Origin: Squalus acanthias
Taxonomy: Eukaryota
DNA: 64,000 bases
Direction: 5' to 3'
Assembly: GCA_030390025.1 (NCBI GenBank)
Contig: CM059431.1
Span: 114,950,001 to 115,014,000 of the forward strand
The notes below the pieces were generated by a model, which saw nothing but the letters and a program-made list of their open reading frames with translations, made no database searches and was not told where the DNA came from. The position numbers were made by a program, and so were the translations under genes. Numbering within the stretch: the first letter of the stretch is position 1; the number at the start of each line of letters is the position of its first letter. This document shows, piece by piece, positions 4,838 through 58,049 of this stretch.

Positions 4838-5373
4838 AACGATTTTGCCGGCGCTCAGAGGGCGGGTTTGGTGGCGGGTCCGGAGTTAAAATCAAAATGA
4901 TTGACGGTGGGTTGCGAACCCGCCGCCATCCCACCTCCATGCAACTTTACAAAGTGTTGGGTCTGCGAGTTCCAATCCGACCCGACACCAAGCGGTGGGA
5001 GAGCCACTTAAGGCAGGTAACAGCTTGTTAACTGCCTGGATAATCCTATTTTGAGAGGCTCTTCCCATTTTGCAACATTTTCAGCGTGTTCCACGTCGTG
5101 CGACAAACACGCCAACTGATTGTGCCGGGTTCAACAACTAGCTGAATAGTTGACAGCTGCACCTATAGCATAAAAGCTGACCTGCAACATGAGTTCACTT
5201 TCAGATACCGAACTTTCTGTTTTGAGGTTTTGGAACACATTTTGCAGATCTATTGAGCTTGTAAGTATTTAATCTGAGAACCATATGCACTGTGACCTCC
5301 TTGGAGTACCCTCTCCCCACATTGACTGAACGCTTATAACATCTCTTTCTCAACTGAAATATATACCAGCAGA

Positions 5374-16599: not shown

Positions 16600-18235
16600 T
16601 TAGAAATAAACTAAAATTGAAGACGAAGGCATATGGGGTATGATAAAAGTATGATGAGAATATAGGAACATAAGGAAAGAGGTTAAGAGAGAGAGAAGGA
16701 AAGCAAAGAGGGAGTATGTGAAGAGATTCTCAAAGGTTATTAAGTGGAAGAGTAAAGTATTCTGCAAGTTGTTAAATGTGAGGTGGGACCTCTGACAGGA
16801 GAGAATAATGTTAGGACAGGATAAATGGAATTTGGTGGTACTTCACATCAGCTATTGGGAGACGTAAACCCTGAATTGGTTAAAAACAGGATAAGAAATA
16901 TCATAATAAATAAAAATATTAGAGAAGCTAGTTAAACTAAAGGAGAACAAAGTGCTGATACATCCAAGAATCCTGCAGAAAATGAGGGCTAAAATAACGG
17001 AGGCCCTGGAAATTATATCTTAAGGTTCTAGTGAGAGTGGATGTGTGCGGGAGGACTGGAAAGTGGCCAATCTAATATCCATTTTTAAAAAGGGAGACAG
17101 AACTAACCCCAGGTAATTACAAGCCAGTTAGTTTAACATCTGTGTTGGTGAACATTTTGGAATTTAGATGAAATTGCTAAATATCTGGATGAAGAAAAAG
17201 TAATTAGAGACAGCTAACTTGAATTTCAGAAAGGAATATCATGCTTGATAAACCTGCTTTCGTTCTTTGAGGAGGTTACAAATATGGTAATTAGGGGAAA
17301 TGCAGTGGATGTGGCGTACATGAACTTTTAGAAAGTCTTTGACAAGATACCACATGGGAGACTACTGGAGAAGATTAAGGGGTATGGAATTAGGGGAATG
17401 GTAGCAAATTAAATTAAAAACTGGTTAGAAGGGAGGAAGCAGAGAATAGGAGTTAAGGACAGTTTCTCGGAGTGGATGGAAGATGATAGCAATGTCCCAC
17501 AGGGTTCTGTTCTGGGACCACTTCTGTTCTCTGTGGACATAAATGTTTTGGATATGGGCTAGAGACAGTGGTGTCCAAATTTGCAGATAATACTAAAACA
17601 GGAGGCATAGAAAATAAATCTGAGGACCAAAGAAAGCTGCAAGGAGATATTAATAAGATGGAGAATGGGGGGGGCGGAGGGGAAATGGAATTCAATGTCA
17701 GTAAGTGTGAGGTAGTACATGGCAAAACAAATTTTTTTTTTAAAGTAATTCTACTTTGATGGGGACAGGCTGGGTAATGTGGAAGGGATTCTGGAGTTCA
17801 GGTTCACAAGATATTAAAAGCAGCACCTCAAGTGGATAAGGCCATTAAAAAAAATCTAATGGAATGTCGGGTTTTATGACAAGAGGTGTAGAATACAAAA
17901 AGTAGAGATGTAATGGTGAATCTATATAAAACCTTAGTAGGACCATAGTTGGAGTACTATGTGCAGTTTTGGGCTCCATACTATAGGAGGGATGTTGAGG
18001 CAATAGAGAGGGTACAGCGCAGATTCGTTAGGATGTTGCCTGGCATGAGGGAATGCAAATACAAAGAAAGACTTGGAAAAATTGGGGATGTTTTTGTTAC
18101 AACAGAGGAGATTATGGAGTGATTTGAGGAATAAAGGGATATGGGAACAGGCCTGGTATATGAATTAGAACTATTGCTCATAGAGAGGATAAACAACAGT
18201 ACTGAATTGTAGGACCGAATGGTTTCCGTATTCTA
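16600..18235 (+). mobile_element. Old CR1 LINE (decayed ORF2 and tail)
   Basis: DWKVANL, FKKGDR, DKIPH, VPQGSVLGP, SKFADNTK and FNVSKCEVVH motifs with many stops and frameshifts. Confidence 0.85.
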
Positions 18236-19568
18236 ATTTGATGTATTTGAACTGTTCAAAAGAAATTGGACAGATTTTTGATTCAACAGTTGAGAAGTTT
18301 GGCCCTGGACACAGAGGCAGGAATGAAATAAAATTGGTCTGTTCAAATTCTGAACAGGAATTGAACTGATACAATGGGGTGGAAGGGCTCATCAGCCACT
18401 TCATTTCCATCTTTTTCAGTTCTTTTGTTCTTATCAGAGATAATGTGACCTCTCTGCATTTGGGGTGGCAATCGACAGTATACAGCCTGTGGTACCAACT
18501 TTATTCTTCATATAGAAAAAAAACGACTTGAATGTAAGTGCAAAATATCTTTTCCGATTTGAATGGTGGCTTATCATTTACTGTGTGTGGCAGAACCTAA
18601 GTACCTAACAGGCAGATTCGAACTTATTATGGGTCACATTTTTTAAGGTATAGACATGAATGGTGTTTTATGTTTTACCTTTTTTTTAATGTTGACAGAG
18701 TATAGAGTGATGGTGTCCCTGCCTCAGGAATGTTGCCTGGGTTGGACTACTGCTCTTGTTGTTTGTTCTTTTTGGTTCTTGTTGCTTCTGTTACTATGGG
18801 AAACCCAACGTACAGTATATTATGTATCATCTGATATGTAGCTACTTGTATGATAAATTAGTGCAAAAATGCAGTAGACATTTTGATATATATGTAGATG
18901 ATGAAGGGGCGGTTTGAAATAAAGTCAAGTTTCTACCTTACTCTTATCTTCAGGGCTGTAAAGATATCTTTTAAGAATGCATTGACTCAATGCCCGAAGT
19001 CGTCTTCCACAGTTTTACTGGATTTCAAATCATGCTGTACATTCACAACTATTATATATGGGAAAATCCTCGATGGCTAAAGATAAAGGAAACTGTAGCC
19101 ATGTTAATGATGGGTTACCAAACTACCTATTCCAGAAATTCCAATCCAAGGTGAAATGTTTGTGGGTGTCAGTAATTGGGCAGAACTCCAATAGGAATAA
19201 TGAAATGGCCTAAAGAAAAATGTATCACATGTGGACTAAATGAAAGTTGGTGAGTCTGCCAAAGGAAATACCTGGTTTTAAAATCTCTTTACATGTGAAT
19301 AAAGGATAATTTATTAAGAGTCTTGAAGAGAGAAGACAGGGAATTACAGATTAGACAGAATGTGAATTGAATCTTGCATTTACAAAAGGAAGATATTATA
19401 TTAGGGGAATTCTGTGTGGGGAAAAAAATAATACAGCATGACTGGTTAGAGTTAAGGCCAAGAAGACTCAAATAAGGTTTCAATGGAAGAAAAAGCTCAA
19501 ATTCAGGCTATCTGCAGAATATCCAGGGAAAGTATTTCAGGTATTAGGGGAACTTACGTAGAGTCATA

Positions 19569-20382: not shown

Positions 20383-20490
20383 AGAGAGTCATAGTCATGT
20401 CTGTAAATGGTATCTCTCTAAACCTTAAGAAGACATGGAATAAGAAAAGGGTATTTGGCCCATTACGCCATTCATTTCTACAGACTATGT

Positions 20491-22194
20491 TCTGTCTTCA
20501 CAAAAGAGGACACAAATAACCTCCCAGAGATGTCGGGGAACATAGGGTCTAATGAGAGGGAGAAACTGAATGAAATCAGTATTTGTAGGGAAATGGTGTT
20601 AGGGAAATTGATGGGATTGAAGGCCGATAAATCCCCAGGGCCTGATAATCTACATCCTAGGGTACTTAAGGAAGTGGCCCTAGAAATAGTAGATGCATTG
20701 CTGGTCATCTTCCAAAATTCTATAGACTCTGAAACAGTTCCCATGGATTGGAGGGTAGCTAATGTAACCCCACTATTTAAAAAAGGTGGTAGAGAGAAAA
20801 CGGGGAATTATAGACCGGTAAGCCTGACATCGGTAGTGGGGAAAATGCTAGAGTCCATTATAAAAGATGTAATAGCAGAGCACTTGGAAAACAGTGACAG
20901 GATCGGACAAAGTCAACATGGATTTACAAAAGGTAAATCATGCTTGACTAATCTACTGGAATTTTTTGAGGATGTAACTGGTAGAATAGATAAGGGAGAA
21001 CCAGTGGATGTGGTGTATTTGGACTTCCAGAAGGCTTTCGATAAGGTCCCACATAAGAGATTAGCGTGCAAAGTTAAAGCACATGGGATTGGGGGTGAGG
21101 TACTGACTTGGATAGAGAACTGGTTGGCAGACAGGAAGCAAAGAGTTGGAATAAACGGGTCTTTTTCCGAGTGGCAGGCAGTGACTAGTACCACAGGGAT
21201 CGGTGCTAGGACCCCAGTTATTCACAATATATATTAATGATCGAGATGTAATATCTCCAAGTTTGCAGACAACACAAAGCTGGGTGGGCGTGTGTGCTGT
21301 GAGGAGGATGCAGATAAACTCCAGTATGATTTGGACAGGTTGAGTGATTGGGCAGATGCACGGCAGATGCAGTATAATGTTGATAAATGCGAGGTTATCC
21401 ACTTTGGTGGCAAAAACAGGAAGGCAGATTGTTATCTGAACGGCAATAGATTGGGAAAAGGGGAAGTGCAATGAGACCTGGGTGTCCTTGTGCACCAGTC
21501 GCTGAAGGTAAGCATGCAGGTGCAGCAGGCAGTTAAGAAGGCAAATGGTATGTTGGCCTTATAGCGAGAGGATTCAAGTACAGGAGCAAGGATGTCTTGC
21601 TGCAGTTGTACAGGGCCTTGGTGAGACCACACCTTTAGTATTGTGTGTAGTTTTGGTCACCTTATCTGAGGAAGGATGTTCTTGCCATGGAGGGAGTGCA
21701 GCGAAGATTCACCAGACTGATACCTGGGATGGCAGGAATGATGTATGAAGAGAGATTGGGTCGATTAGGCTTATATTTGCTAGAGTTTAGAAGAATGAGA
21801 GGGGATCTCATTGAAACTTATAAAATTCTAACAGGACTAGACAGACTAGATGCAGGAAGGATGTTCCCGATGGCGGGAGAGTCCAGAACCAGGGGTCACA
21901 GTCTAAGGATAAGGGGTAAGCCATTTAGGACTGAGATGAGGAGGAATTTCTTCACCCAGAGAGTGGTGAACCTATGGAATTCTCTACCACAGAAGGCAGT
22001 TGAGGCCAATTCATTAAATATATTCAAGAAGGAGTTAGATATATTTCTTAAGGCTAAAGGGATCAAGGGATATGGGGAGGAAGCAGGGACAGGGTACTGA
22101 ATTTGGATGATCAGCCATGATCTCATTAAATGGCGGAACAGGCTCGAGGGGCCGAATGGCCTACTCCTGCTCCTATCTTCTATGTTTCTATGTT
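20491..22194 (+). mobile_element. CR1 LINE (RT domain to 3' tail), young, with small deletions
   Basis: KSPGPDNLHPRVLKE, NYRPVSLTS, SQHGF, YLDFQKAFDKVPH, LEFRRMRGDLIE; (TTCTATGT)n tail. Confidence 0.95.
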
Positions 22195-28484: not shown

Positions 28485-30792
28485 CTTTCTTCTCAGGCAG
28501 TCCCTCAGAACCGAGGATGACTTGCTTCCACATTAAAAATGAGTTTGCAGGTGACTGATGAGTCCAATGCGGGACCTACAGTCTCTGTCACAGGTGGGGC
28601 AGACGGTGGTTGAAGGGGCGGGTGGGTGGGGTGCTTGGGTTGACGTGCGCTCCTTGCGCTGCCTGCGCTTGGCTTCTGCTTGCTCCCGGCGAAGAGACGC
28701 GAGGTGTTTGGCGCCTTCCTGGATGCTTCTCCTCCACTTTGTGCGGTCTTGGGCCAGGGATTCCCAGGTGTCGGTGGGGATGTTACACTTTTTCAAGGAG
28801 GCTTTGAGGGTGTCCTTGAAGCGTTTCCTCTGCCCACCTGGGGCTCTCTTGCCGTGCCGGAGCTCCAAGTAGAGCGCTTGTTTTGGGAGTCTCGTATCGG
28901 GCATGCGGACAATGTGACCTGTCCATCGGAGCTGATCGAGCGTGGGCAAAGCTTCGATGCTGGGGATGTTGGCCTGAGCAAGAACACTGACATTGGTGCG
29001 CCTATCCTGCCAATGGATTTGCAGGATCTTGCGGAGGCAGCGTTGGTGGTACCTCTCCAGTGCTTTGAGGTGCCTGCTGTACATGGTCCATGTCTCTGAG
29101 GCATACAGCAGGGCGGGTATCACTGCTGCTCTGTAGACCATGAGCTTAGTGCCAGGTTTGAGGTTCTGGTCTTCAAACACTCTCTTCCTCAGGTGACCGA
29201 AGGCTGCACTGGCACACTGAAGGCAGTGTTGGACTTCGTCATCGACGTCTGCCCTTGTTGACAGTAGGCTTCCGAGGTATGGAAAGTGGTCCACGTTGTC
29301 CAAGGCCTTGTCATGGATTTTGATAATCGGGGGGCAGTACTGTGTGGTGGGGGCAGGTTGGTAGAGGTCCTTTGTCTTACAGATGTTTAGTGTAAGGCCC
29401 ATGCTCTCGTACGCTTCGGTGAAGGTGTTGCCGATGGTTTGGAGTTCGACCTCCGAGTGAGCGCAGACGCAAGCGTCGTCTGCATACTGTAATTCGACGA
29501 CAGAGGATGGGACGACCTTGGATCTGGACTGGAGGTGACGGAGGTTGAACAGTTTCCCGTTTATTCTGTAAATTAGCTCCACTCCGGTGGGGAGCTTACT
29601 GAGGGTGAGATGGAGCATTGCAGCAAGGAAGATCGAGAAGAGCGTTGGTGCGATGACACAGCCTTGCTTGACCCCGGTTCGTACGTGAATTGGGTCTGTG
29701 GTGGAACCGTTGGTCAGGATCACGGCTTGCATGTCGTCGTGAAGCAGGCGGAGGATGGTGACAAACTTTTGAGGGCAGCCGAATTTGAGGAGGACACTCC
29801 ATAATCCCTCACGGTTGACAGTGTCGAAGGCCTTTGTGAGATCAAAGAAGGCCATGTACAGTGGTAGTTGCTGTTCCCTGCATTTGTCTTGTAATTGACG
29901 TGCAGTGAAGATCATGTCCATTGTGCCCCTTAGTGGGCGGAATCCACATTGCGACTCTGGGAGGAGCTCTTCGGCCACTGGGAGAAGGCGATTGAGGAGG
30001 ATTCTTGCGATAACTTTCCCTGTGGCAGACAGCAGGGAAACTCCTCTGTAATTACCGCAATCGGACTTGTCACCTTTCTTGAAGATGGTCACAATTATGG
30101 TGTCTCTGAGATCCCCTGGCATGCTCGCCTCCTTCCAGATAAGAGAAATGAGTTAATGAATTCGCGCCAGTAGTGCTTCTCCGCCATGCTTTAGTGCCTC
30201 GGCGGGGATTCCATCTGCTCCTGAGGCCTTGTTGTTCTTCAGTTGTCGGATGGCCTTTTCAACCTCATGCCGGGCTGGGGTTGTGCTGAGATGGTGGCGG
30301 GTAGCATGCTGCGGGATGGAGTTGAGGACACTCGCGTCGAAGACAGAGTCGCGGTTAAGGAGATCTTCGAAGTGCTCCTTCCAGCAGGCACTGACTGCCT
30401 CTCTGTCCTTGATGAGTCCCTCTCCATTCTTGGCCCGCAGTGGGGTAGGGCCTTGGGTGCTTGGGTCGTAGATGGTCTTGACTGCGCTAAAGAATCCACG
30501 CACGTCGTGGTTGTCGGCTAGCTGCTGGATCTCCTGCGCTTTCTCCACCACCATCTGTTCTTTAGGTCGCGAGTTTTTTGTTGGACCTCGGCCTTCAGGC
30601 GTCTGTAGAGCTGCTTTCTTGCTCTCGAGTTCTGTTGCTGTTTCCAGATCAGGAATGCCTTGCGCTTGCGGCTTATTAGCTCCTGGATCTCCTGGTCATT
30701 CTCATCGAACCAGTCTTAGTGTTTCCTGGTCGAGTGACCGAGCGTCTCTTCACAGGTGCTGATTATGGAGGCCTTGAGTGCAGACCAGGCGC
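28485..30792 (-). mobile_element. RTE-clade (BovB-like) LINE, 5'-truncated
   Basis: 11-bp TSD TATATGAAAAT (28474-28484 / 30793-30803); ORF pieces 30153-30554 and 28533-30122. Confidence 0.93.
28533..30122 (-). CDS. RTE reverse transcriptase domain with C-terminal C2H2 finger (529-aa open segment)
   Basis: FKKGDKSDCGNYRGVSLL, ESQCGFR, FDLTKAFD, GVKQGCVIAP, LQYADD, CPTC..SHLQTH. Confidence 0.9.
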   Translation of the reverse strand: MPGDLRDTIIVTIFKKGDKSDCGNYRGVSLLSATGKVIARILLNRLLPVAEELLPESQCGFRPLRGTMDMIFTARQLQDKCREQQLPLYMAFFDLTKAFDTVNREGLWSVLLKFGCPQKFVTILRLLHDDMQAVILTNGSTTDPIHVRTGVKQGCVIAPTLFSIFLAAMLHLTLSKLPTGVELIYRINGKLFNLRHLQSRSKVVPSSVVELQYADDACVCAHSEVELQTIGNTFTEAYESMGLTLNICKTKDLYQPAPTTQYCPPIIKIHDKALDNVDHFPYLGSLLSTRADVDDEVQHCLQCASAAFGHLRKRVFEDQNLKPGTKLMVYRAAVIPALLYASETWTMYSRHLKALERYHQRCLRKILQIHWQDRRTNVSVLAQANIPSIEALPTLDQLRWTGHIVRMPDTRLPKQALYLELRHGKRAPGGQRKRFKDTLKASLKKCNIPTDTWESLAQDRTKWRRSIQEGAKHLASLRREQAEAKRRQRKERTSTQAPHPPAPSTTVCPTCDRDCRSRIGLISHLQTHF

Positions 30793-43762: not shown

Positions 43763-46045
43763 GGTCAGCAGTGGAACACTAAAGCCCCTCCGGAACCTTC
43801 TTCCCCTTCACTTTCCTCTGACCCCCCTTCTCCCAATCTCACCCCCTGCCGCGTTTTCACTATCCCCTCTGACCTTCCCCTCTCTGACTCCGAACGATCA
43901 GTCCTCAGCAAAGGCCTGAGCTTCATCCCCTTACGCCCCCATCTCAATGAATTTCGAGCTCGGCACGATGCTGAGCTCTTTTTCCGCCGCCTCCGTCTCC
44001 GTGCCCACTTCTCTGGCCAGGAGTCTTCCCCCCGCACGGCTGACCCTTTCTCCCGCTTTCAGAATTCTCGTTCCACCTGGACCCCTCCCTCTGGCCTCTT
44101 ACCCTCTCTTGATCTTTTCATTGCTAACTGCCGCCGTGACATCGGCCAGCTCAATTTCTCTGCTCCCCTCACTCACTCCAACCTACCTCCCTCTGAACTT
44201 GCAGCACTCCATTCTCTCCGATCCAACCCTGACATTGTCATTAAACCTGCTGACAAGGGTGGCGCTGTTGTTGTTTGGCGAACCGACCTCTACCTAGCGG
44301 AAGTTGAACGCCAACTCTCTGACACCTCCTCCTACCTCCACCTGGACCATGACCCCACTACCGAACATCAAGCCACCGTGTCCAAGACTGTCACTGACCT
44401 CATCTCCTCTGGAGATCTTCCCCCCACGGCCGCCAACCTCATAGTTCCCCAAACCCGCACAGCCCGCTTCTACCTCCTTCCCAAGATCCACAAACAGGAC
44501 TGCCCCGGTAGACCCATCGTTTCAGCCTGTTCTTGCCCCACGGAACTTATCTCTTCCTATCTCGACTCTATTTTTTCTCCCCTTGTCCAGTCTCTTCCCA
44601 CCTACATCCGCGACTCTTCCGATGCCCTCCGCCATTTTAACAGTTTCCAGTTTCCCGGCCCCAACCGTCTCCTCTTCACTATGGACGTACAATCCCTCTA
44701 CACCTCCATTCCCCACCAGGATGGCCTGAGGGCGCTCCGCTTCTTCCTTGAACAGAGGCCCAACCAGTCCCCATCCACCACCACCCTCCTCCGCCTGGCT
44801 GAACTTGTTCTCACATTGAACAACTTCTCCTTTGACTCTACCCATTTCCTCCAAATTAAAGGTGTTGCTATGGGTACCCGCATGGGTCCTAGCTATGCCT
44901 GCCTTTTCGTGGGATATGTGGAACACTCTTTGTTCCAGTCCTACTCGGGTCCCCTCCCTCACCTCTTTTTCCGGTACATTGATGACTGTATCGGTGCCGT
45001 CTCCTGCTCTCGCCCTGAACTAGAACATTTCATTCACTATGCTTCCAATTTCCACCCTTCCCTCACCTTCACATGGTCCATCTCCGACTCTTCCCTTCCC
45101 TTCCTCGACTTCTCCATCTCCATCTCTGGGGATAGGTTATTGACTAACATTCACTACAAGCCCACCGACTCCCACAGCTACCTGGACTACACTTCCTCCC
45201 ACCCCGCCTCCTGTAAGGACTCTATTCCATTCTCCCAGTTTCTCCGTCTCCGCCGCATCTGCTCTGATGATGCCACCTTCCATACTAGTGCTTCCGACAT
45301 GTCTTCTTTTTTCCTCAACCGAGGATTCCCCTCTACCGTGGTCGACACGGCCCTCGACCGTGTCCGTTCTATCTCCCGCACATCTGCCCTCACCCCTGCC
45401 CCTCCCTCCCGGAACCATGACAGGGTTCCCCTTGTCCTCACCTTTCACCCCACCAGCCTCCACATTCAACGGATCATCCTCCGCCATTTCCGCCACCTCC
45501 AGCGTGATCCCACCACCAAACACATCTTCCCCTCACCTCCCCTTTCAGCATTCCGCAGGGACCGCTCCCTCCGCGACACCCTAGTCCACTCCTCTACCAC
45601 CCCCAGCACCCCTTCCCCTTCGCCCGGCACCTTCCCGTGCACGCGCAGGAGATGCAACACATGCCCTTATACCTCCCCTCTTCCCACTGTCCAGGGCCCC
45701 AAACACCCCTTCCAGGTGAAACAGCGATTTACTTGTACTTCCTGCAATTTAGTATACTGTATTCGCTGCTCACGATGTGGACTCCTCTACATTGGGGAGA
45801 CCAAACGCAGATTGGGTGACCGCTTTGCGGAACACCTCCGTTCAGTCCGTAAGGGGGACCCCGAGCTCCCGGTGGCCTGTCACTTTAATTCACCGCTTCA
45901 CTCCCACTCTGACCTCACCGTCCTCGGCCTATTACACTGTTCCACGGAAGCTCAGCGTAAGCTCGAGGAACAGCACCTCATCTTTCGTTTAGGCACGCTA
46001 CAGCCCTCTGGACTCAATATCGAGTTCAACAATTTTAGATCATAA
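43763..46045 (+). CDS. PLE polyprotein: RT + GIY-YIG endonuclease (760 open codons, no native start)
   Basis: The 44378 ORF frame stays open back to 43763: VLSKGLSF, KPADKGGAVVV, YLLPKIHK, PGRPIVS, MDVQSLYT, GVAMGT, RYIDD, LPFLD, CxxC/H motifs, VYCIRC..LLYIGET. Confidence 0.92.
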   Translation, partial: GQQWNTKAPPEPSSPSLSSDPPSPNLTPCRVFTIPSDLPLSDSERSVLSKGLSFIPLRPHLNEFRARHDAELFFRRLRLRAHFSGQESSPRTADPFSRFQNSRSTWTPPSGLLPSLDLFIANCRRDIGQLNFSAPLTHSNLPPSELAALHSLRSNPDIVIKPADKGGAVVVWRTDLYLAEVERQLSDTSSYLHLDHDPTTEHQATVSKTVTDLISSGDLPPTAANLIVPQTRTARFYLLPKIHKQDCPGRPIVSACSCPTELISSYLDSIFSPLVQSLPTYIRDSSDALRHFNSFQFPGPNRLLFTMDVQSLYTSIPHQDGLRALRFFLEQRPNQSPSTTTLLRLAELVLTLNNFSFDSTHFLQIKGVAMGTRMGPSYACLFVGYVEHSLFQSYSGPLPHLFFRYIDDCIGAVSCSRPELEHFIHYASNFHPSLTFTWSISDSSLPFLDFSISISGDRLLTNIHYKPTDSHSYLDYTSSHPASCKDSIPFSQFLRLRRICSDDATFHTSASDMSSFFLNRGFPSTVVDTALDRVRSISRTSALTPAPPSRNHDRVPLVLTFHPTSLHIQRIILRHFRHLQRDPTTKHIFPSPPLSAFRRDRSLRDTLVHSSTTPSTPSPSPGTFPCTRRRCNTCPYTSPLPTVQGPKHPFQVKQRFTCTSCNLVYCIRCSRCGLLYIGETKRRLGDRFAEHLRSVRKGDPELPVACHFNSPLHSHSDLTVLGLLHCSTEAQRKLEEQHLIFRLGTLQPSGLNIEFNNFRS

Positions 46046-46150
46046 CCTCAGCTCCAATCACATTTATATTTTATTTTATCCACCCTTTTATTTGTCCCCC
46101 CCACCTTTTTTTTTCCTCCTAGAAGCTGGCAGCTGTCCTTCATTCTGCCA
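43777..46150 (+). mobile_element. Penelope-like retroelement, 5'-truncated, young
   Basis: Perfect 11-bp TSD CAGCAGTGGAA (43766-43776 / 46151-46161) around an uninterrupted RT-EN frame. Confidence 0.93.
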
Positions 46151-46418
46151 CAGCAGTGGAAGCTCCTATCCAAATCTTGGTGCTCCTCGGTGATTTCACA
46201 GTGGCAGCAGGGTGTGAGGTGTTTTTCTTCAGGATCTTTTTGGGATTGTTGTGGGCCTTATCTCAGGACAGGATCGATCCCAGAGGGACCTGCTGCAGTC
46301 TGTGTTTCACCTGCTGCTGCAGAGGCCAGCTTAATTCTGGCTGCTTTCTGCCATATGTGCAGGCATCCGAGGGGTCTGACAGGCGGGCACCACACTGTTA
46401 CTTCTTGATTTACCTCAT

Positions 46419-46732
46419 AGAATCACAGAATCACAGAATCCCCACAGTGCAGATAGAGGCCATTTCGGCCCATCGAGCCTGCACCGACACATATCCCACC
46501 CTATCCCCGTATTTAATCCCCCCTAACACTAAGGGTCAATTTATCATAGCCAAATCAACCTAACCCGCACATCTTTGGACTGTGGGAGGAAACCGGAGCA
46601 CCCGGAGGAAACCCACGCAGACACGGGGAGAATGTGCAAACTCCACACAGACATTCACCCGGGGCCGGATTCGAACCCGGGTCCCTGGCGCTGTGAGGCA
46701 ACAGTGCTAACCACTATGCCACCGTGTTGCCC
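46419..46732 (-). mobile_element. HE1-like tRNA-derived SINE with (GATTCTGT)n tail
   Basis: Same head and body as the 27898 copy but a different 3' tail; short (C)TCAT duplication at the flanks. Confidence 0.9.
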
Positions 46733-47475
46733 TCATCTTCTGTTTTTCTCTTTTAAACCTTGGTACTATCTTACACGCTAATCAGGCCCTTGGTTTTTCA
46801 TCCTGGTTCATCACGAAAAAGTCAAACAAACTTAAAAACAGAAAGAGGCATACTCACACAAATACAAAAACAGAGAGATACGTGTATATAGTGAGAGAGA
46901 AAGTCCCACACAGGAAAACATATACATTCATCACTCATGGACCAAGATGGTGGACAGGCAACGCACCTCTGTCTATGATGCATTGAACTGAGTGACATCT
47001 GATGTTAACATTGCCTATGCTCAGTGACGTTTTTTCTTCCGACTAGTTTCCATTTTAAAAATTAGTAAGCAATATCAAAATATCAAAAAGTCAGAAAATA
47101 ATGATTAATGAAGGCAATAAAACAACACAGTCAGCAAGTATAAACACACAAGTCTTGCTACAGGAACTAATTTCAGCACCCGAGTGTTAAAAACCAGATT
47201 TTAGCATTAAATTCAAATGGACGTATTGAAAGGATTGCTAAACACCTCTAACAAAATGCTGCATATACAGTTTGACTCTTTATTTGTGATCTCTGATATA
47301 TTATTGCTGAGATGATAAAGGGCTAAAAGTTATGAACAGTAAGGATTACTAATTATATATATTTTTAATTATTACTTTGCCAAGGCCCTAATGCTCATTC
47401 TATTTGTTTTTAGATTGACTGGTTTCACAGTACACAATAATAGTGACTGCATTTCCATCTTCCTCCTCCTCTAAG

Positions 47476-47681
47476 GTTACTCTTTGGGCTGTGTTTGCCA
47501 AGGTATCCTATCTCTCCCCGGTACATTCTTTCCCAAGTAGCTACAGAGGCTGTTCATATCCGGCAGGCCCAGAAACTCCATGGTGACTGCATGAACAATT
47601 GCAATGATGTGACAAAAAATCATAAAAAGGCTATTTGCTTTGGGGCGGATATTGAGGGACCTCTGATATGTGACTACACAG
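47476..47681 (+). other. Candidate exon of an unidentified plus-strand transcript
   Basis: Pyrimidine tract + AAG acceptor, consensus donor CAG|GTAAGT, one fully open frame (LLFGLCLPRYPISPRY...FGADIEGPLICDYT). Confidence 0.35.
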
Positions 47682-48165
47682 GTAAGTGTGTGCAAACATC
47701 CCTTCCAAGTACACAGACAAGGAAAGCTTAAAATGTGCATAGTTACTTATCATCATTGTTTACTTATGCATATGGGTGGATGACAGGAACTGGACTGAAA
47801 CTAATTTTTTTTTCCATTCAGAGGAAGACTATACAGAGATTAAAGCAATCTGGATTCAGGAACCTTGTTTTCGCATTGCATATTGTATGTTACTCTTAGA
47901 CAGTGACGTGTTACTGATAATTTCCTCTGCTCAATGCTTATACAGTAAACCTTGTAATAATTCGAGAATATGAGAATATGATATATGGAGTGGTCAGATA
48001 TGAATTATATCACTACACATGATCTGACCTAATAACTCACCTTTGCCACGAATTACTTGTCGAGTCAGGTCGCAAGTGATATACTTCATCACTCACAAGT
48101 AAATAAACATGTTGTGGAAATGTTTATATTTTAATAATACACACTATTCTACAACTATGTATATA

Positions 48166-49988
48166 AGTGAGAAGTCACACAACACCAGGTTATAGTCCAA
48201 CAGCTTTATTTGAAATCACAAGCTTTCGGAGCACTGCTCCTTCGTCGGATGAAGTGAAGGTATTTCTTCACTTCACCCGACGAAGGAGTGTAAAATTCGC
48301 AAATTATCGCGATTCAAAAATAACGAGAGAGAGATACAGTTTCGTTCAAGTAGTTTTATTTCAGCGAAATGCTGTCATGTTTCAAAACGGACACAAGAAG
48401 CCTGTAAAATGGCCGCCGGGCCTCGTGGCAGAAGTTTCTAGAATTTCCAGTAGACAGACAAGATGGCGTTCGAATAAACATTTCAGAGTAAGATTGGATA
48501 ATACTCTGCAAACATTGGTAAAGACAGGATGCAACCTGTCGGCATTCGACACAATAGCAAAGATATAAGTGCTGGAATCGTTTTCCATGTACAAGTGAGG
48601 ACTATTGTACTGGGCAATCAGAGGCCCCATCAAAAAGACATCAATACGCAAATTCCCCGCAAGCTCTACAAGAGAGAGCCATTCGCGGGTGCTTACACAA
48701 ATATTTCGGAGGCCCCCAATACACCGCCAGGGAAGCTCCCAGCCGGTTCCACAATGGGAGAAACATTAACGGGTATTTGGCCAGTTACAAGTGTCACCGA
48801 AACCCATTACAAACAAGAATCACCCCATACTGAGAAGTTTGAGTGCCAAGATTTTACAAAAAGATGAACATTAAGATTGGGCGGGAGATAAGGGAACCGA
48901 GTACTATAACTATAGACAACAAATGTCCATCACTCTCTTATTCTCTTGGCTCTTGACTCTTATCTCTGCTGACTATGGACTCGGGCTGAACTCTTATCCT
49001 TTCATTCGCTTGGAATCGACTCTTGGCTCTTATCCCGGACGACCGTTATTCTCTCTTGTTCCGCTGATCCCTTTTGGGGTCGACCTCGTGGCGCGCTGCG
49101 AAATCGGGTGCACCATCCCGAAGGTCGGTAAACAGTGTATGGACCCGAAGGCCCGAGGAGATGAGATGAGATGAGAAGAGAAGAAGAAGAATCCACGTGC
49201 CGCCGCGGTCAGTAAACCCTGACCGCGCCCAAAATATATGAACATTGTTAAGCTATATAAGTTTTGATCGGGAATCCGAGGTCAACACAGATCTTCATAA
49301 CAGCAGACGATTTAGCCTGCTAGCCGGAGCAGAGCAAATAAACAAGTGGGGTACAGAGACCCCATGTCAACACATGAACGGTCAGGTGTTGCAGCGAAAA
49401 CAGCCGAGCGCCGTTTTAGAATTCTCCGAGGTATTACGAGTGGTGAGCATGTTTCTCGATCCTACAGATCTAGATTAGAGCAGGCATTGATTGGGGAGGG
49501 GGGTTTATTAAGGATAATTATAATGTGTGTCCCCTTTTTTGACGTGTCGTGCGCTCCTCGTTTCCCTAAACCTAGTTTAATAAATGTATGTAAGCTTGTA
49601 CTGTCATTAATTTGTGCCTATGACATGTACTTCATAATTTTGGACGCTATGCAATAAAGATTTCCATTTCGTACTATTCAACCGGGTCTATTTGAGTTTT
49701 TCTCTGCATTACTGCTCTCGCACCTAAGTCCAGTGTTAGAACCGTAAGGGCGAGTGGGTCGAACCACTCACAGGTGCTTATTGCAATAAGGCTGGCAGGA
49801 GACCAGAGCAAGCAATAGTATTAGGCAACGAAGGCCTAACCCCGCACAAGCACCCTGAACCGAACCCCTTACAGGAGCAGCGCTCCGAAAGCTTGTGATT
49901 TCAAATAAAGCTGTTGGACTATAACCTGGTGTTGTGCAACTTCTCACTTTTGTCCACCCCAGTCCAACACCGGCATCTCCGCATCATG
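48166..49988 (+). mobile_element. Fold-back PLE-derived element with hammerhead motifs, copy 1 (split by a solo LTR)
   Basis: ~94-bp inverted arms around loop GTATTT plus a ~40-bp tail; 12-bp TSD ACTATGTATATA (48154-48165 / 49989-50000). Confidence 0.85.
48289..49873 (+). mobile_element. Solo LTR copy 1 (1585 bp; ERV or Gypsy, unresolved)
   Basis: TGTAA...TTACA termini, 4-bp TSD GGAG, ATTGG/GC box and TATA-like at ~48875-48915, AATAAA at ~49653. Confidence 0.88.
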
Positions 49989-50044
49989 ACTATGTATATA
50001 GGCACTCGCACATTCCCAAACATTCTTTGCAAGATGGCTTTTTT

Positions 50045-50466
50045 AAATTCATTCATGGGATGAGGACATTGCTGGCAAGGCCAGCATTTATTGCCCATCC
50101 CTAATTGCCCTTGAGAAAGTGGTGGTGAGCCGCCTTCTTGAACTGCTGCAGTCCGTGTGGTGAAGGTACTCCTACAGAGCTGTTAGGGAGGGAGTTCCAG
50201 AATTTTGACCCAACGACAATGAAGGATCGGCGATATATTTCCAAGTCAGGATGGCATGTAACTTGGAGGGGAACTTGCAGGTGATGATGTTCCCATGCGC
50301 CTGCTGCCCTTGTCCTTCTAAGTGGCAGAGGTCGTGGGTTTGGGAAGTGCTGACAAAGAAGCCTTGGCGAGTTGCTGCGGTGCATCTTGTAGATGGTACA
50401 CACTGCAGCCACGGTACGCCGGTGGTGGAGGGAGTGAATGTTTAAGGTGGTGGATGGGGTGCCAAT
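50045..50466 (-). mobile_element. Zenon-like LINE 3' fragment
   Basis: Homologous to 718-1140 (KKAAHHHFLKGN). Confidence 0.85.
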
Positions 50467-51115
50467 TTTAACGTATGTAACATCTGTTCATGTTTTCTAC
50501 CATATTGAGTTCTATGTCATACTACCTTTAAACTGCCAGGGACACCAATGAATAAGCATAACACTTGTATGTTAAGGATCATAAATGTATGCCTCTCTAT
50601 CATTGGACTGACAGAAATTAGATGCAGCATAACCACTAAGTCCCTAGGAAGTAAAAGTGCAACCTCTACCTACACTGTATTGCTATGGTGTATTATTTAC
50701 TAGACTGCCAGGATTAGATACATACACACCATTGCTTTTTCAGGGAATACAAATGCATTCTACCTCTTTCCCTCCCCTCACCCCAAATAATAGTACCCTT
50801 CAGTGATGGCGCATATGAACGATAGTTCACACCCTCCCCATAAGGCTGTCAGGCATCAGATGTGCAATTACCACTTAAGAGTACGGTTGTGTCCAATCTT
50901 GGACCAGCTCCTGCTCCCTTTTTCAGCAATTTTCTCCCCTTCTCGTCCCCTGAAAACATCGATCGTGGTAACGTTCAGTTTCTTGGGCTTTAGGTAACTG
51001 CTGATACCTGAAAAACATAACACTGCGGATGCTGAAAATCTGAAATAAAAACCAGAAAATGCTGGAAATACTCAGCAAGCCAGGCAACATCTGTGGAGAG
51101 AGAAACAGAGTTAAC

Positions 51116-51959
51116 GGGCTTGATTTTCTCAGCCCGAGGAGGCGGGCATTGGGGCGGGACTACCGGTAAAGTTGCAGAAAGTGGGGGCGGATGGCAAACC
51201 CGCCCCCATCCCGCCGCCGTACCCTTTTGCCAGGAGGCGGGAAGATGTCCTGTTTTGGGTCCCATCTCCTCGAGGTGATAAAAGGGAGTAAATCCTTTTA
51301 ACTGCCTGTTAACAGGTAGTTAACAGGCAGAAAAAAGGATTAGTGCCATTTTACCTTCTCAGGTGAAAGCTTCCCGACCTCGGAGAACCCCGCCAGGTTG
51401 GAGGAGTCGAGTAGGAGGTCTGTGGGGGTCGGAGGGGCCTGAAAGGGAGATGTAGAGGTGAGTGATGGGTGCAAGTGTGGAGTGGTAAGTTAGTGAGGTG
51501 AGTGTAAAGTGTTAGAAAATGTTCACTTACCTTTGTTTCTCCCTACAGCCTTCAGCCGTGGTGGTTCCGGAGTCCCGACATCTTCGTTGTAGATTTCACA
51601 GACTGGCTGTTGGATCCTCCGAACCAACAGTCATCTGCTTTCTACAAAGTTGAAAGGTTTGATGAGTCCTGAACACAAGCACTCATCAAACTACACAGAA
51701 TGTCAGTGTTTGACAGCTTCACAGAGCTGTCAAACGCTGACATTTTTTCTTTCAAGAAGTCTTGACAGATGGCACGTCAGATGTTGATGTGCTCTGTCAG
51801 TGACTTTCCCCTAATTGGCCTGCTGAGCCCGCAGGGTGGGTTTAACAAGGTCAATCAGGGAAAATCCCTCTGGTTGGCCAGAACATGATGGAGGCAGGAC
51901 TGAGACCCAACAAGCAACAGTCCTGCCTCTAGCACGTCTCCATTCACAAAATCCAGCCC
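51116..51959 (-). mobile_element. Harbinger-type MITE, palindrome-rich family, diverged inverted copy
   Basis: GGGCTTGATTTT / AAAATCCAGCCC ends and 3-bp TSD AAC; internal homology to 19569-20382. Confidence 0.85.
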
Positions 51960-51991
51960 AACGTTTCAGGTCTGTGACCTTTCATCAGAAC
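51960..51991 (-). ncRNA. Minimal hammerhead ribozyme core in a PLE pseudo-LTR, disrupted at the cleavage site
   Basis: Minus strand GUU-CUGAUGA-A-AGGUC-ACA-GACCU-GAA-ACGU-U; the 3' strand of stem I (AAC) now lies beyond the MITE. Confidence 0.7.
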
Positions 51992-53280
51992 TGGAAAAAA
52001 TTTAGAGATGTAACGGGTTTTAAGCAAGTACAGAGGCAGGGAAAGGACAGAGGGGAGGAAAGAACAAAAGGGAAGGTCTGTGATAGGGTGGAAGGCAGGA
52101 GAGATTAAATGACAAAAGGGATGATGGTGCAAGGCAAAAGGGGATGGTAATGGGACAAGTAAAGAAACAAAAGATAAGTCTAGAAGAGGTGTAAATGGGA
52201 ATAATAGAATCATTACCAACAGCTGCTGTCTGAAAAAATGGGGGCAGTGGTTATGATTTGAAATTGCTGAACTTAATGTTGAGTCCAGAAGGCTGTAAAG
52301 TGCCTAATTGAAAGATGAGGTGCTGTTCCTCAAGCTTACGTTGAGCTTCATTGGAATAGTGCAGGAGGCCGAGGACAGAGAAGTGAGATTGGGAGTGGGG
52401 TGGAGAATTAAAATGACAGGCGCTTGCGGACTGAACAGAGGTGTTCCGCAAAGCGGTCACTCAGTCTGCGTTTGGTCTCCCCAATGTAGAGGAGACCGCA
52501 TCATGAGCAGCGAATACAGTATACTAAATTAAAAGTACAAGTAAATCGCTGTTTCACCTAGAAGGAGTGTTTGGGGCTTTGGACGATGGGAAGGGAGGAG
52601 GTGAAAGGGCAGGTGTTGCATCTCTTGTGTTTGCATGGGAAGGTGCCTTGGGAAGTGGAGGGGATGTTGGAGGATATTGAAGAGTGGACCAGGGTGTTGC
52701 AGAGGGAACGGTCACTTCGGAATCCAGAAAGAACATAAGAACATAATAAATAGGAGCAGGAGTAGGCCATACGGCCCCTCGAGCCTGCTCTGCCATTCAA
52801 TAAGATCATGGCTGATTATCGACCTCAACTCCACTTTCCCACCTGATCTTCATATTCCCCTAGAGTCCAAAAATCTATCTATCTCAGCCTTGAGTATACT
52901 CAAAGACTCAGCATCCACAGCCCTCTGGGGCAGAGAATTCCAAAGATTCACAACCCTCTGAGTGATGAAATTCCTCCTCATCTCATTCTTAAATGGCCTA
53001 CCCCTTATCCTGAGACTATGCCCCCTAGTTCTAGACACTCCAGCCAGGGGAAACAACCTCTCAGCATCTACCCTGTCAATCCCTTTCAGGATCTTGTATG
53101 TTTCAATGACATCACCTCTCATTCTTCTAAACTCCAGAGAGTTTAGGCACATTCTACACAATCTCTCATCATAGGACAGACCTCTTGTAAAATTCGCAAT
53201 TATCGCGATTCGAAATAACGAGATAAAGCAGATTTGTTTCATCAGTTTTATTTCAACGAAATGCTGTCATGATTAAACAG

Positions 53281-53507
53281 AGGTCATGATGTGGAGATGC
53301 CGGCGTTGGACTGGGGTGGACAAAAATGAGAAGTCGCACAACACCAGGTTATAGTCCAACAGATTTATTTAATTTTACAAGCTTTTGGAGCTGTCGCTCA
53401 TTCCTCAGGTAAGTTAGCAGTAACTTACCTGAGGAAGGAGCGACAGCTCCGAAAGCTTGTAAAATTAAATAAATCTGTTGGACTATAACCTGGTGTTGTG
53501 CGACTTC
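53281..53507 (-). mobile_element. Fold-back PLE-derived element with hammerhead motifs, copy 2 (inside LTR copy 2)
   Basis: 91-bp arms (53326-53416 / 53421-53511) around loop GCAG, with the tail on the left; 14-bp TSD TCATGATTAAACAG (53267-53280 / 53508-53521). Confidence 0.88.
53425..53462 (+). ncRNA. Minimal type I hammerhead ribozyme with intact core
   Basis: UUAC-CUGAGGA-A-GGAGC-GACA-GCUCC-GAA-AGCU-U-GUAA: stem I UUAC/GUAA, stem II GGAGC/GCUCC, palindromic stem III AGCU, CUU cleavage triplet. Confidence 0.75.
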
Positions 53508-56340
53508 TCATGATTAAACAGGACACAGAAGCCTGTAAAATGGCTGCTGCGCCTCGTGGCAGAAGCTTCCAGAATTTTCAGTGGGCAGACAAAATGGCGT
53601 TCGAATAAACATTTCAGAGTAAGATTGGATAATACTCTGCAAACACTGGTAAAGACAGGATGCAACCTGTCTGCATTCGACACAATAGCAAAGATATAAG
53701 TGCTGGAATCGTTTTCCATGTACAAGGCAATCAGAGGCCCATCCAAAAGACATCAATACGCAAATTCCCCGCAGCTCTACAATGAGAGAGCCATTCGCGG
53801 GTGCTTACACAAATATTTCGAGGAGGCCCCAAAACCAGTCAGGGAGACTCCTAGCCGGTTCGACAATGGGGAAAACATTAATGGGTATTTGGCCAGTTAC
53901 AAGTGTCACCGAAACCCATTACAAACAAGAATCACCCCATACTGAGAAGTTTGAGCGCCAAGATTTTACAAAAGATGAACATTAAGATTGAGCGGGAGAT
54001 AAGGGAACACAGCACTTTAACTATAGTGAACAAACGTCCATCGCTCTCTTATCTCTGCTGACTATTGACTCGGGCTGAACTCTTGTGCTCTTGCTGCCCA
54101 GCGAACTCTGGTTCTGCTGATTTTTCGGGAGTCAACCTCGTGGCTCGCCGAGAAGATCTGTGAAGAGCTGGACTGCGAAGGCCGGTAAGCGGGTGCACCA
54201 TCCCGAGGGTCGGTAAACGGTGTAGGGACTCGAAGGCCCGACGAAACAAGACAAGACAAGAAGAAGAAGACGACGCCACGTGCCGCCGCGGTCAGTAAAC
54301 CCCGACCGCGCCCGAAATATAAGAACATTGTTGAACTCTATAGGTTTTGATCAGGAATCCGAGGTCAACACAGATCTTCATAACAGCAGACAATTTAGCC
54401 TGCTAGCCGGAGCAGAGCAAATAAACAAGTGGGGTACAGAGACCCCTGGTCAACACGTGAACGGTCAGGTGTTGCAGCGAAAACAGCCGAGCGCCGTTTT
54501 AGAATTCTCCGAGGTATTACGAGTGGTGAGCATGTTTCTCGATCCTACAGATCTAGATTAGAGCAGGCATTGAGAGGGGAGGGGGGTTTTATTAAGGATA
54601 ATTATAATGTGTGTCCCCTTTTACGATGTGTCATGCGCTCCTCGTTTCCCTAAACCTAGTTTTATAAATGTATGTATACTTGTACTGTCATTAATTTGTG
54701 CCTATGACATGTACTTCATGATTTTAGACGTTATGCAATAAAGATTTCCATTTCGTACTATTCAACCGGGTCTATTTGAGTTTTCTCTGCATTACTACTC
54801 TCGCACCTAAGTCCAGTGTTAGAACCGTAAGGGCGAGTGGGTCGAACCACTCACAGGTGCTTATTGCAACAAGGCTGGCCGGAGACCAGAGCAAGCAATA
54901 GTATTAGGCAACGAAGGCCTAACCCCGCACAAGCACCTACGAACCGAACCCCTTACACTCTCATCCTAGGAATCAATCTAATGAACCTTCGTTGCACCGC
55001 CTCCAAGGCAAGTATATCCTTCCTTAGTTAAGGAGACCAAAACTGTGCACAGTACTCCAGGTGTAGCAAGACTTCCTTACTCTTATACTCCAACCCCCTT
55101 CAATAAAGGCCAACCTGCCATTTGCCTTCCTTATTGCTTGCTGTACCTGCATGCTAGCTTCCTGTGTTTCTTGCACGAGGACATCCAAATCTCCAAAGTG
55201 GAGGGGAGGGGAAGATGTGTTTGGTGGAGGCATCACGCTGTAGGTGGCAGAAATGATGAAGGATAATCCATTGAATGTGGAGGCTTGCGGGGTGGAATTA
55301 GAGGACAAGGGGAACCCTATCGTGGTTCTGGGAGGACGGGAAGAGGTGAGAGCAGAAGTGCGGAAATGGGATGGACACGGTCGAGGGCCATGTCAATCAC
55401 GGAGGGAAATCCTCAGTTGAGGAAAAGGGAAGACATGTTGGAAGCACTGGTATGTAAGGTGGCATCGTCAGAACAGATGCGACGGAGATTGAGAAACTGG
55501 GAGAATGGAATAGAATCCTTACAGGAAGCGGGGTGGGAGGAAGTGTAGTCAAGGTAGCTGTGGGAATAAGTGGGCTTATAGTGGATGTTGGTCGATAGCC
55601 TATCCTCAGAAATGGAGATGGAGAAGTCGAGGAAGGGAAGGGAGGAGTCATAGATGAACCATGTGAAGGTGAAGGAAGGGTGGAAATTGGCAGCAAAGTT
55701 GATGACATTTTCCAGTTTGGGGCGAGAGCAGGAAATGGCACCAATACAGTCATCAATGTAATGGAAACAGAGGTGAGGGAGGGGACCTTAGTAGGACTGG
55801 AACAAAGAATGTTCCGCATATCCCACGAAAAGGCAGGCATAGCTCGGACCCATGCGGGTTCCCACCTTTTATTTGGAGGAAGTGAGCAGAGTCAAAGGAG
55901 AAGTTGTTCAATGTGAGAACAAGTTTAGCCAGACGGAGGAGGGTGATGGTGGATGGGGACTGGTTGGGCCTCTGTTCAAGGAAGAAGTGGAGCGCCCTCA
56001 GGCTGTCCTGGTGGGGGATAGAGGTGTAGAGGGATTGGACATCCATGGTGAAAAGGAGACGGTTGGGGCCAGGAAACTGGAAACTGTTGAAGTGGCGGAA
56101 GGCGTCGGAAGAGTTGCAGATGTAGGTGGGAAGAGACTGGACAAGGGGAGAATAAATAGAGTCGAGATAGGAAGAAATCAGTTCCGTGGGGCAAGAACAG
56201 GATGAAACGATGGGTCTACCAGGGCAGTCCTGTTTGTGGATCTTGGGAAGGAGGTAGAAGCGGGCTGTGCGGGATTGGAGAGATTATAAGGTTGGAGGCT
56301 GCCTGACCTGCTGAGTATTTCCAGCATTTTCTGTTTTTAT

Positions 56341-56620
56341 TGCTGGTACCTCACGTAAGTGGCCGTCCTCCTTGTATGAGGGTAGACTACAGACAGGCTA
56401 TTTAACTGTGGGTGTACCGTAGCTCAGCCCGATCCAGTCCTCCCATCTGCGCTTTCCGGCAAAACTCCAGAGTAAAAACCACGGATAATATTTTCCCCCT
56501 CCCTAGCCCATGGCTGCTGAGGGCATTTGGAGCACCCCAGCTACAATGCTAGCTGAGATAGGTGACTTAGAACAGGCTGTGAATTTAAACTGGCACCCTC
56601 TGGTCTATATGACTCAGTTA
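56341..56620 (-). mobile_element. Old tRNA-derived SINE (5' part); its 3' part appears to lie at ~50850-51009
   Basis: Degenerate SINE-like sequence that continues across the PLE TSD; family assignment from recall only. Confidence 0.4.
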
Positions 56621-56823
56621 CATCCTGTATGTAAAATAGGTGTGTATATGTATACCTTTAATTCTACTTACAGTTGCCAATTATTGTATGGTCTGACAGT
56701 TAAAGGCAGCACTATGAAAAGTATATTTCCCATCATTAGGAGGAAATTTTGTCCACTTTAGCACGGATGCTACTCTGGTGGGACAGCAAAAAAAGAGCCA
56801 TTATGCATGCACAGAGAGATATT

Positions 56824-57011
56824 GGAGATAATTTTGACTTTGTGTGATGGTGTAAAAAGGGTGATAGCAAATCAGCAGCCGGTTTTACATCCCTCCCGAC
56901 AATTATTTTCATTGAAGTCAATCGGAATAAAAATCGGGAGAGAGATGTAAAACGGGCTGTCGATTTGCTATCGCCCGTTTTATACTAACGCACAAAGTCA
57001 AAATTAACCCC
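56824..57011. mobile_element. Short fold-back MITE (Harbinger-type ends)
   Basis: GGAGATAATTTTGACTTTG / CAAAGTCAAAATTAACCCC, largely palindromic, ATT TSD; relative at 61194-61338. Confidence 0.8.
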
Positions 57012-58049
57012 ATTGTGTTCTTGGTGCAATTTGTTTAAAGAGACAGTTTCATTCCAAATTCAACTATTTGCACATTCATTCAAAGTACTCTCATTTGATT
57101 GTTTCAAGTTCTCCGATCATTTCAGTGCTCACCTCTATCCCACTTCCTAGATGTGATTGCCACTGTCCAGCATTGGCTGACGTGACTTTTCTCTGTGGCA
57201 TCTTAGAACAGCAATTTCTTCTGCAAAATATGTAATATTAATACACAACTTTTATTTAATAAATTTGTTTTTCTTTCTACGGGGTATCAGTAAATTGGTT
57301 ATTTCTCTGAATTTCAAAGAGCCAGCGTTATGTGGTATATTTTAGCCTGTGACATTCTCGCTGAAACTGTGTGCCCACTGTGGTGCTTTGACCTTGCTAA
57401 TCTCTCCTGTCTGGACAACCAATTTGTGCCAGTTTTGTAAGACATTTTGCAGGTCAACCAAGGTAATACAGGCTATTGAAAATGTTACAGCTATTGTCAG
57501 TAGTGAGACCGTTCTCTTTTTCCTTGCTGAATAAGCAACTCTACTTTTTCCGTTCTTGTGTGTGCCGGTTACAAAAGCAAATACCAAGCTGCACATTCTT
57601 GTTGCTGACAGGCCCATGAAGCCTTTGCTTTTCTGTTTATGAGCGTACACAGACAATTCAGAACTTATTGGAGCCAGTGACATTTGCAGATTGCAAAACA
57701 GAGTCTTTTTTAAAAGTAACTTCCTTAAATCAGATTGCTACCTGTCCAGTTTTGCAACCAATCACAAATGCTTTGCTTACCATTAACCAGATGACTTTTG
57801 TCAGGGAAGAAATAATAAGGCATTCCATGCCAGCAGACTTTCAGGTATTAGGTAATTATCGACTTGCTAGCGGCAGTTGACTGCTGAATGTTACTTCCAG
57901 TCTAGCTTGGGAGTGGTTCTGTCAGTAAGAGCACATACCAGGAACATATATTAGCCTCAAACTGCATTTACTTTATCTCCATTTACACTGATCCAGATTG
58001 AACCCTAGTCAGGATTTAAGCACCAAAGTATTGAATGACCATGAATTAT

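Follow-up and report, generated by a model that had tools for sequence, protein, structure and literature searches.

Judged from their sequence, both of the small hairpin elements, or stubs, in the window (the whole 64,000-nucleotide stretch of DNA analysed here) are the 3' end of a Penelope-like element (PLE) that bears an endonuclease, and consist of a pseudo-LTR with a minimal hammerhead motif together with a tail. The reading favoured here, with a probability of about 0.75, is that the stubs are short PLE 3'-end insertions which are built anew at the landing site from two head-to-head cDNAs and which end at the 5' end of the RNA, upstream of the hammerhead. In such a process the PLE protein would likely nick both strands in a staggered cut of 12-14 bp, and reverse transcription would start at two sites on the RNA, giving one arm with a tail and one without. 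Having run for ~95 and ~135 nt, the two cDNAs would end close to where the transcript begins, prior to being joined head-to-head, either bluntly or on 1-6 nt of microhomology.

The two elements lie where a first-pass annotation had placed them, and their arms, one-sided tails and TSDs are all present (Table 1). In copy 2 the 91-nt arms are 98% complementary and are separated by a loop of 4 nt, and the whole is flanked on both sides by the repeat TCATGATTAAACAG. Since the first 4 nt of this repeat double as the arm end, the TSD of copy 2 is 10-14 bp rather than the 14 bp originally given, while the 12 bp given for copy 1 stands. Copy 2 is a true insertion because the paralogue of its host LTR, also within the window, shows the target only once and hence represents the empty site. 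Copy 1 (48166-49988) is interrupted within stem II of its hammerhead, where a solo LTR of 1585 bp (TG..CA) has inserted with a duplication of GGAG. The two solo LTR-like copies, both TG..CA with 4-bp duplications, are ~90-98% alike in blocks and show a reciprocal nesting, where one sits inside a PLE stub and the other hosts one, so that the solo-LTR and stub families would have been active over overlapping periods.

Table 1. Features of the two stubs and of the repeats associated with them, in window coordinates.
Feature	Position	Strand	Basis or remark
Left TSD, copy 1 (12 bp)	48154-48165		
Inverted arm, copy 1 (core CCGACGA)	48166-48259	-	
Tail-bearing arm, 5' part, copy 1 (stem I 5' strand, U4>C core, stem II start)	48260-48288	+	
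Solo LTR-like repeat inside stem II of copy 1 (GGAG duplication)	48289-49873	+	
Tail-bearing arm, 3' part, and tail, copy 1	49874-49988	+	tail ends at the ORF-start ATG, 49986-49988
Right TSD, copy 1	49989-50000		
Solo LTR-like repeat hosting copy 2 (TG..CA, CTCT duplication)	53186-54957	+	
Left TSD, copy 2 (10-14 bp)	53267-53280		empty site in paralogous LTR
PLE tail, copy 2 (45 nt, one-sided)	53281-53325	-	ends a few bases beyond the ORF-start ATG, 53287-53285 on the minus strand
Tail-bearing arm, copy 2 (3' part of pseudo-LTR, sense on the minus strand)	53326-53416	-	inverted-repeat search; blast against parent
Damaged minimal type I hammerhead motif, copy 2	53375-53412	-	G12>A, G10.1>U
Tail-less inverted arm, copy 2	53421-53511	+	inverted-repeat search
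Putative minimal type I hammerhead, canonical core, copy 2	53425-53462	+	predicted cut after 53458
Right TSD, copy 2	53508-53521		

What is the parent of these stubs? A 29-nt pattern from the tail has 42,236 exact matches in the 3.7-Gb genome, against none for the reversed control, and in one of the first 30 matches the sequence continues into an ORF beginning with the tail ATG. The ORF-start pattern itself has 527 genome matches, and all eight of the full-copy loci fetched contain an ORF of 892 aa (891 aa in one) whose start is the ATG in the tail; two of the eight are tandem arrays with a unit of ~3138 nt. The ORF has Pfam matches to RVT_1 (E 2.7e-8) and GIY-YIG (E 6.2e-5), both above the Pfam cut-offs, the latter also from the last 112 aa alone, and so the parent carries, in a single ORF, the RT and C-terminal GIY-YIG that define an EN+ PLE. 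The DKG motif is present as KPADKGG, whilst VVYLIRCRKECTAAWYIG provides two cysteines between GIY and YIG which, with downstream histidines, correspond to the CCHH finger (both motifs as defined in PMC8557442). A PDB sequence search with the parent ORF returned 0 matches. The CX4CxxC linker, CHGKLCKTC in the ORF of locus L081, belongs to the CX2-5CxxC type that PMC8557442 describes between RT and endonuclease in Neptune/Nematis and not in Penelope/Poseidon, and the sequence of the parent therefore points to the former clade.

The insertions of the parent also have the PLE layout, with pseudo-LTRs arising from partial tandems, an inverted 5'-truncated copy, a 30-40 bp tail and a TSD; the inverted truncated copy and the tail are given as typical of PLEs in PMC8557442 and PMC3846280, and the layout is described too in PMC2377424. 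Locus L081, with a pseudo-LTR-ORF-pseudo-LTR-tail order, a 2.9-kb inverted arm and a 14-bp TSD, represents the stub layout at 25 times the size. Among the ORF-start copies (L144-L229), 23 of 90 matches are short insertions that reach only ~30-180 nt into the ORF, which suggests that RT also starts, to a minor extent, beyond the tail on its downstream side. The window contains a second, distinct PLE ORF at 43763-46045 (+), of 760 aa, with RVT_1 (E 1.8e-5) and GIY-YIG (E 4e-4) matches and 35% identity to the parent ORF; inverted pieces matching this second PLE, at 52238-52731 and 55195-56281, flank the second solo LTR. Also in the window are a MITE-like 88-nt inverted repeat at 56823-57012, 78% complementary and unrelated to the PLE, and one DDE_Tnp_4 transposase-like ORF and two RT-bearing ORFs at 5326-6582, 20422-21237 and 28533-30152.

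The population of copies was sampled from 96 of 100 listed tail matches, which after collapsing an exact duplicate gave 95 exact-tail copies, all from the first 7 Mb of contig 1; two further exact-tail copies found in twenty random 10-kb stretches were kept out of this set. An inverted arm is present, within the DNA fetched, in at least 70 of the 95 consecutive copies, three of which were mis-paired or double-counted and were excluded from the end statistics. The best TSD is of 12-14 bp in 52 of the 70, where mispaired flanks never give more than 8 bp. Arm lengths across the sample form a continuous series from tens of bases to 2.9 kb, with the inverted arm no more than 260 nt from the tail in 43 of the 95, a figure that scales to roughly 17,000-19,000 stubs genome-wide if the sampled region is typical. 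The suggestion that the elements are extremely short PLE insertions with an inverted pseudo-LTR and a tail is thus borne out by the parent, by the continuous size series and by centres that vary between copies.

The key question concerning the hairpin is how the inverted arm comes to be made. In 57 of the 70 copies this arm extends 11-16 nt beyond the arm motif and there adjoins the TSD, whereas the tail-bearing outer end lies around the ORF-start ATG, giving two fixed outer ends ~40 nt apart; several full copies end at the tail-less site. De novo assembly of every hairpin during insertion would give such a fixed outer end beside the TSD. The inner ends are unequal: at 56 clean junctions the tail-less arm is longer by at least 5 nt in 26 and the tail-bearing arm in 17, with the two within 4 nt of each other in 13, and the arms are joined either bluntly or with an overlap of a few bases. 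In eight copies the arms differ by loop-II or stem variants that are common in the family. Together the fixed outer ends, the unequal inner ends and the haplotype differences between arms favour two separately primed cDNAs. The PAc element of the anole provides a precedent, as both strands are reported to be cut and extended from two internal RT start sites in vitro (PMC11167929).

A somewhat unlikely alternative keeps the same parent and has the inverted arm formed by self-priming, or snap-back, followed by asymmetric deletion at the unstable centre and occasional gene conversion. PMC3846280 reads junction palindromes as the product of self-priming, and the centre of copy 2 is compatible with a snap-back loop of 4 nt. 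The two arms of a copy are correlated in length (Spearman 0.79, n=48) and most arm pairs, many of them identical, are of one haplotype, both of which also fit self-priming with subsequent loss at the centre of the palindrome; gene conversion, apparent at L098/L101, could explain the other arm mismatches, L101 being one of the eight mismatched copies. However, a snap-back copy should either reach the tail end or stop at random, and not at the fixed site seen in those 57 copies, which is ~40 nt before the tail end and coincides with the 3' end of tail-less full copies. Moreover, a plain snap-back copy never exceeds its template in length, yet the tail-less arm is the longer in those 26 of 56 junctions. 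An AT-rich site, TT[CT]ATAAA[CT]AGA or its reverse complement, underlies many PLE copies (L002, L004, L020, L026, L044, L053, L097, L105, L109, L121, L148, L152), apparently within another repeat, and is possibly a target hot spot.

If two cDNAs are indeed joined, where do they stop? Among arms that reach the core, 38 of 115 stop 0-9 nt upstream of it, an interval chosen after the data had been seen, as against 0 of 46 copies that are longer than a unit (p 6e-7), and the contrast holds within two subfamily groups (26/50 vs 0/16 and 7/31 vs 0/30). The long set comprises 90 of 100 listed ORF-start copies, 64 of which extend into the ORF by 600 nt or more; of these 64, 46 reach the core, 8 begin between it and the arm motif, and the remaining 10 begin downstream of the motif, extents in divergent subfamilies being lower bounds. 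Full-length copies had initially been expected to share the starting point of the stubs, which proved wrong.

Of 150 arm ends 88 lie within 40 nt, and 27 of the 88 at -3 to +2, of an initiator-like A, which follows a TATA-like box by 27-32 nt in 25 of 25 long reference copies (a degenerate box being accepted in two). The commonest subfamily has 16,871 matches, and among the first 100 of these, 26 have their end exactly at the A 30 nt past the TATA box, as do 18 of 72 outside the discovery region, matches preceded by T being uncounted. The base before this +1 A, where a cap-derived G may show, is G in 21 and A in 5, although the other arm, or renewed priming on the core, accounts for most of the G's. 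At six junctions (L246, L248, L249, L254, L255, L256) there is a recurrent extra TG before the +1 A, which may have come about where the end of the cDNA primed again on the CUGAC core. The initiator was also predicted to be a universal stop and this was rejected: in the subfamily of copy 2, where the TATA box is degenerate and sampled ends are scattered 6-21 nt upstream of the core, only 47 of 2,901 arms reaching the +1 A stop there, so the initiator assignment is not general.

The pile-up of ends likely reflects the 5' end of an RNA rather than stalling of the RT, because stalling should affect the long copies too. That the pile-up is due to stalling at the folded ribozyme, with no RNA end involved, is an unlikely explanation, even though in both subfamily groups the 5' strand of stem I is a more consistent position for the ends than the predicted initiator; the longer-than-unit copies cross the motif without stopping (0/46), and an RT that stalled should do so where it first encounters the structure, at its 3' base. 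An RNA 5' end generated by the ribozyme itself, with the stubs copied from RNA cut at the cleavage site, is very improbable. Genome-wide there are 222 ends at the predicted cut compared with 156 at +3 and 95 at -3 nt, an excess of ~2-3 fold after correction for pattern acceptance, but small deletions, or microhomology to the other arm through GTGA, seem to account for many of the 100 listed matches, and most arms, including those of both copies in the window, keep the whole ribozyme. These weak and confounded cut-site ends are in line with the use of uncleaved RNA by PAc.

On the reading of an RNA 5' end, the long copies would need a template that extends past the stop, which read-through of an array, a template jump or a circle could each provide; circular PLE RNA has been proposed (PMC4209133). 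One doubtful scheme would have two classes of template, with a linear uncleaved RNA, beginning just ahead of the hammerhead, giving rise to ~95- and ~135-nt strong-stop-like cDNAs, and so to the ~17,000 or more stubs, and a 3138-nt circle, which lacks an end at this position and is produced when the hammerhead cuts at both pseudo-LTRs, giving full and multi-unit copies.

The least credible alternative, raised in the first-pass annotation and already largely refuted, is an independently mobile family of fixed ribozyme hairpins, for although 10 of the 29 near matches to copy 2 that were parsed have a 9-nt centre in common and one long junction is common to two loci with different flanks, those 10 carry several core and loop haplotypes with a junction on 3-nt microhomology, the near-match search is biased towards copy 2, the copy 2 centre occurs once genome-wide, the shared junction has three genome matches all within 0.55 Mb, 51 of the 56 clean junctions have distinct end pairs, and the outer arm end is fixed beside the TSD. 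The bias arises because end words were too common and were skipped (a DNA search with the element 3' end alone gave no matches for the same reason), and the near-match set, with 15 centres among the 29, was excluded from the end statistics; three of the 10 loci with the recurrent centre share flanks and are duplicates. The loci that share the long junction, L098 and L101/L102 (G000:C1, 3.43-3.98 Mb), have the same asymmetric centre with different flanks and TSDs. L101 is 0.53 Mb from L098, one match being a duplicate, and the shared centre is likely the outcome of local gene conversion between stubs. As far as the sequences go there is no fixed-centre family, and the centres of the sampled copies are variable yet non-random, in that they cluster just upstream of the hammerhead, an outcome that the first-pass annotation had not foreseen. 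Nor do the elements have the fixed length, fixed centre and inverted repeats at both termini of fold-back or MITE-like elements, as the tail lies outside the inverted repeat. The head-to-tail hammerhead units of non-LTR retrozymes are likewise missing, the arms being head-to-head, with a short direct tandem in 1 of 95 copies (L116).

How intact is the hammerhead that is carried along? The motif strings and the predicted cut are as first written, and a motif is found on every arm, yet a canonical uninterrupted core is present on only one of the four, that on the plus strand of copy 2; its minus-strand counterpart has G12>A at 53386 and G10.1>U at 53400, and both arms of copy 1 have the U4>C core CCGACGA. 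This variant, seen in the window at 48277-48283, occurs in 19 of 215 parsed family motifs, and hence a subfamily whose core is non-canonical has spread. Among these 215, which are related rather than independent copies and were parsed with core and stem II letters constrained so that the figures lean towards the model, stem I pairs 1-3 are standard in 95-99% and loop II has 25 sequences. The covariation noted in stem I extends to the family, with pair 3 being C-G in 164, U-A in 36 and other in 15, whereas stem II, thought to be invariant, varies between A-U and G-U at pair 3 and between C-G and U-A at pair 5. Family-wide the motif displays the CUGANGA/GAAA core, stems I and II, the palindromic stem III and the compensatory changes of a minimal type I hammerhead. 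It looks maintained, which would reflect selection on the parent and not on the stubs. An Rfam scan of 44000-58000 gave no hammerhead model match, and five chance miRNA-hairpin matches below the gathering score.

Within the stub the hammerhead fold is predicted to be strongly disfavoured, at -110 kcal/mol when enforced compared with -171 kcal/mol, a cost of ~61 kcal/mol. On each transcript strand only one hammerhead is in sense and the 91-bp hairpin is predicted to bury it, whilst cofolding of the motif yielded no active-type dimer. On either strand the antisense arm is transcribed first, and because it precedes and pairs with the ribozyme, the self-cleaving transcripts that had been envisaged are unlikely for read-through RNA. 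The hammerheads in stubs would then be passengers, buried in this way in any read-through transcript.

The closest described relatives share much of this organisation. Pen2a of Adineta vaga, as presented in PMC3846280 and in the scheme of PMC8557442 (Fig. 2), has partial tandems, an inverted 5'-truncated copy, a one-sided tail, a TSD, junction palindromes, a TATA and initiator-like motif in the pseudo-LTR, and overlap of the pseudo-LTR and tail with the ORF start. The commonest product here, by comparison, is an ORF-less stub of ~150-250 bp (the 43 of 95 copies above), and the TSD is of 12-14 bp as against the 8-10 bp given for Adineta (PMC3846280). With PAc (Poseidon, Anolis carolinensis) the likeness, according to PMC11167929, lies in a tail defined by two internal RT start sites, the cutting and extension of both strands, a hammerhead at the pseudo-LTR/ORF junction and a main template of uncleaved RNA. 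In PAc the ORF is reported to start inside the hammerhead and RT to start 111-118 nt into the ORF, whereas here the ATG, at the end of the tail, follows the core by ~120 nt, and the parent has the CX4CxxC linker that PMC8557442 assigns to Neptune/Nematis.

The metazoan PLE minimal type I hammerheads of PMC4209133 are similar in their short stem I, extra nucleotide between 9 and 10.1, G10.1-C11.1 pair, palindromic stem III, high loop variability and thousands of dispersed copies, and pairs of hammerheads on opposite strands 100-700 bp apart are noted there. The motifs here, which are putative, differ from those described in having a 5-bp stem II and a U4>C subfamily. Non-LTR retrozymes (bioRxiv 10.64898/2026.07.22.740005) are also non-coding, hammerhead-bearing and PLE-derived, but are described as head-to-tail tandem units with a ribozyme in each, whereas the stubs are head-to-head with no sign of being copied as a unit. 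A literature search of partial coverage, judged by title and abstract, found no paper on such PLE hairpin stubs.

As the layout of the stubs is already known for PLEs, both copies are ordinary by-products of a known class of retrotransposon, and their extra value as mechanistic evidence is modest. The one useful addition is that short copies mostly stop just before the ribozyme motif and extra-long copies run past it, and from their ends the two were likely copied from two different forms of RNA. The young insertions, which number tens of thousands and whose ends can be measured, constitute a fossil record in which this can be tested by counting, and the contrast between short and long copies predicts a capped 5' end just before stem I together with a circular or multimeric 3.1-kb RNA. 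If true, the two-template reading would support, from the genome, the rolling-circle role that has been proposed but not proven for PLE ribozymes, and would account for the regeneration of the pseudo-LTR. Finally, siRNAs from inverted Penelope copies are reported in Drosophila (PMC3681739), and the thousands of near-perfect 90-bp hairpins in this genome would, if transcribed, be a likely source of siRNAs against the family.
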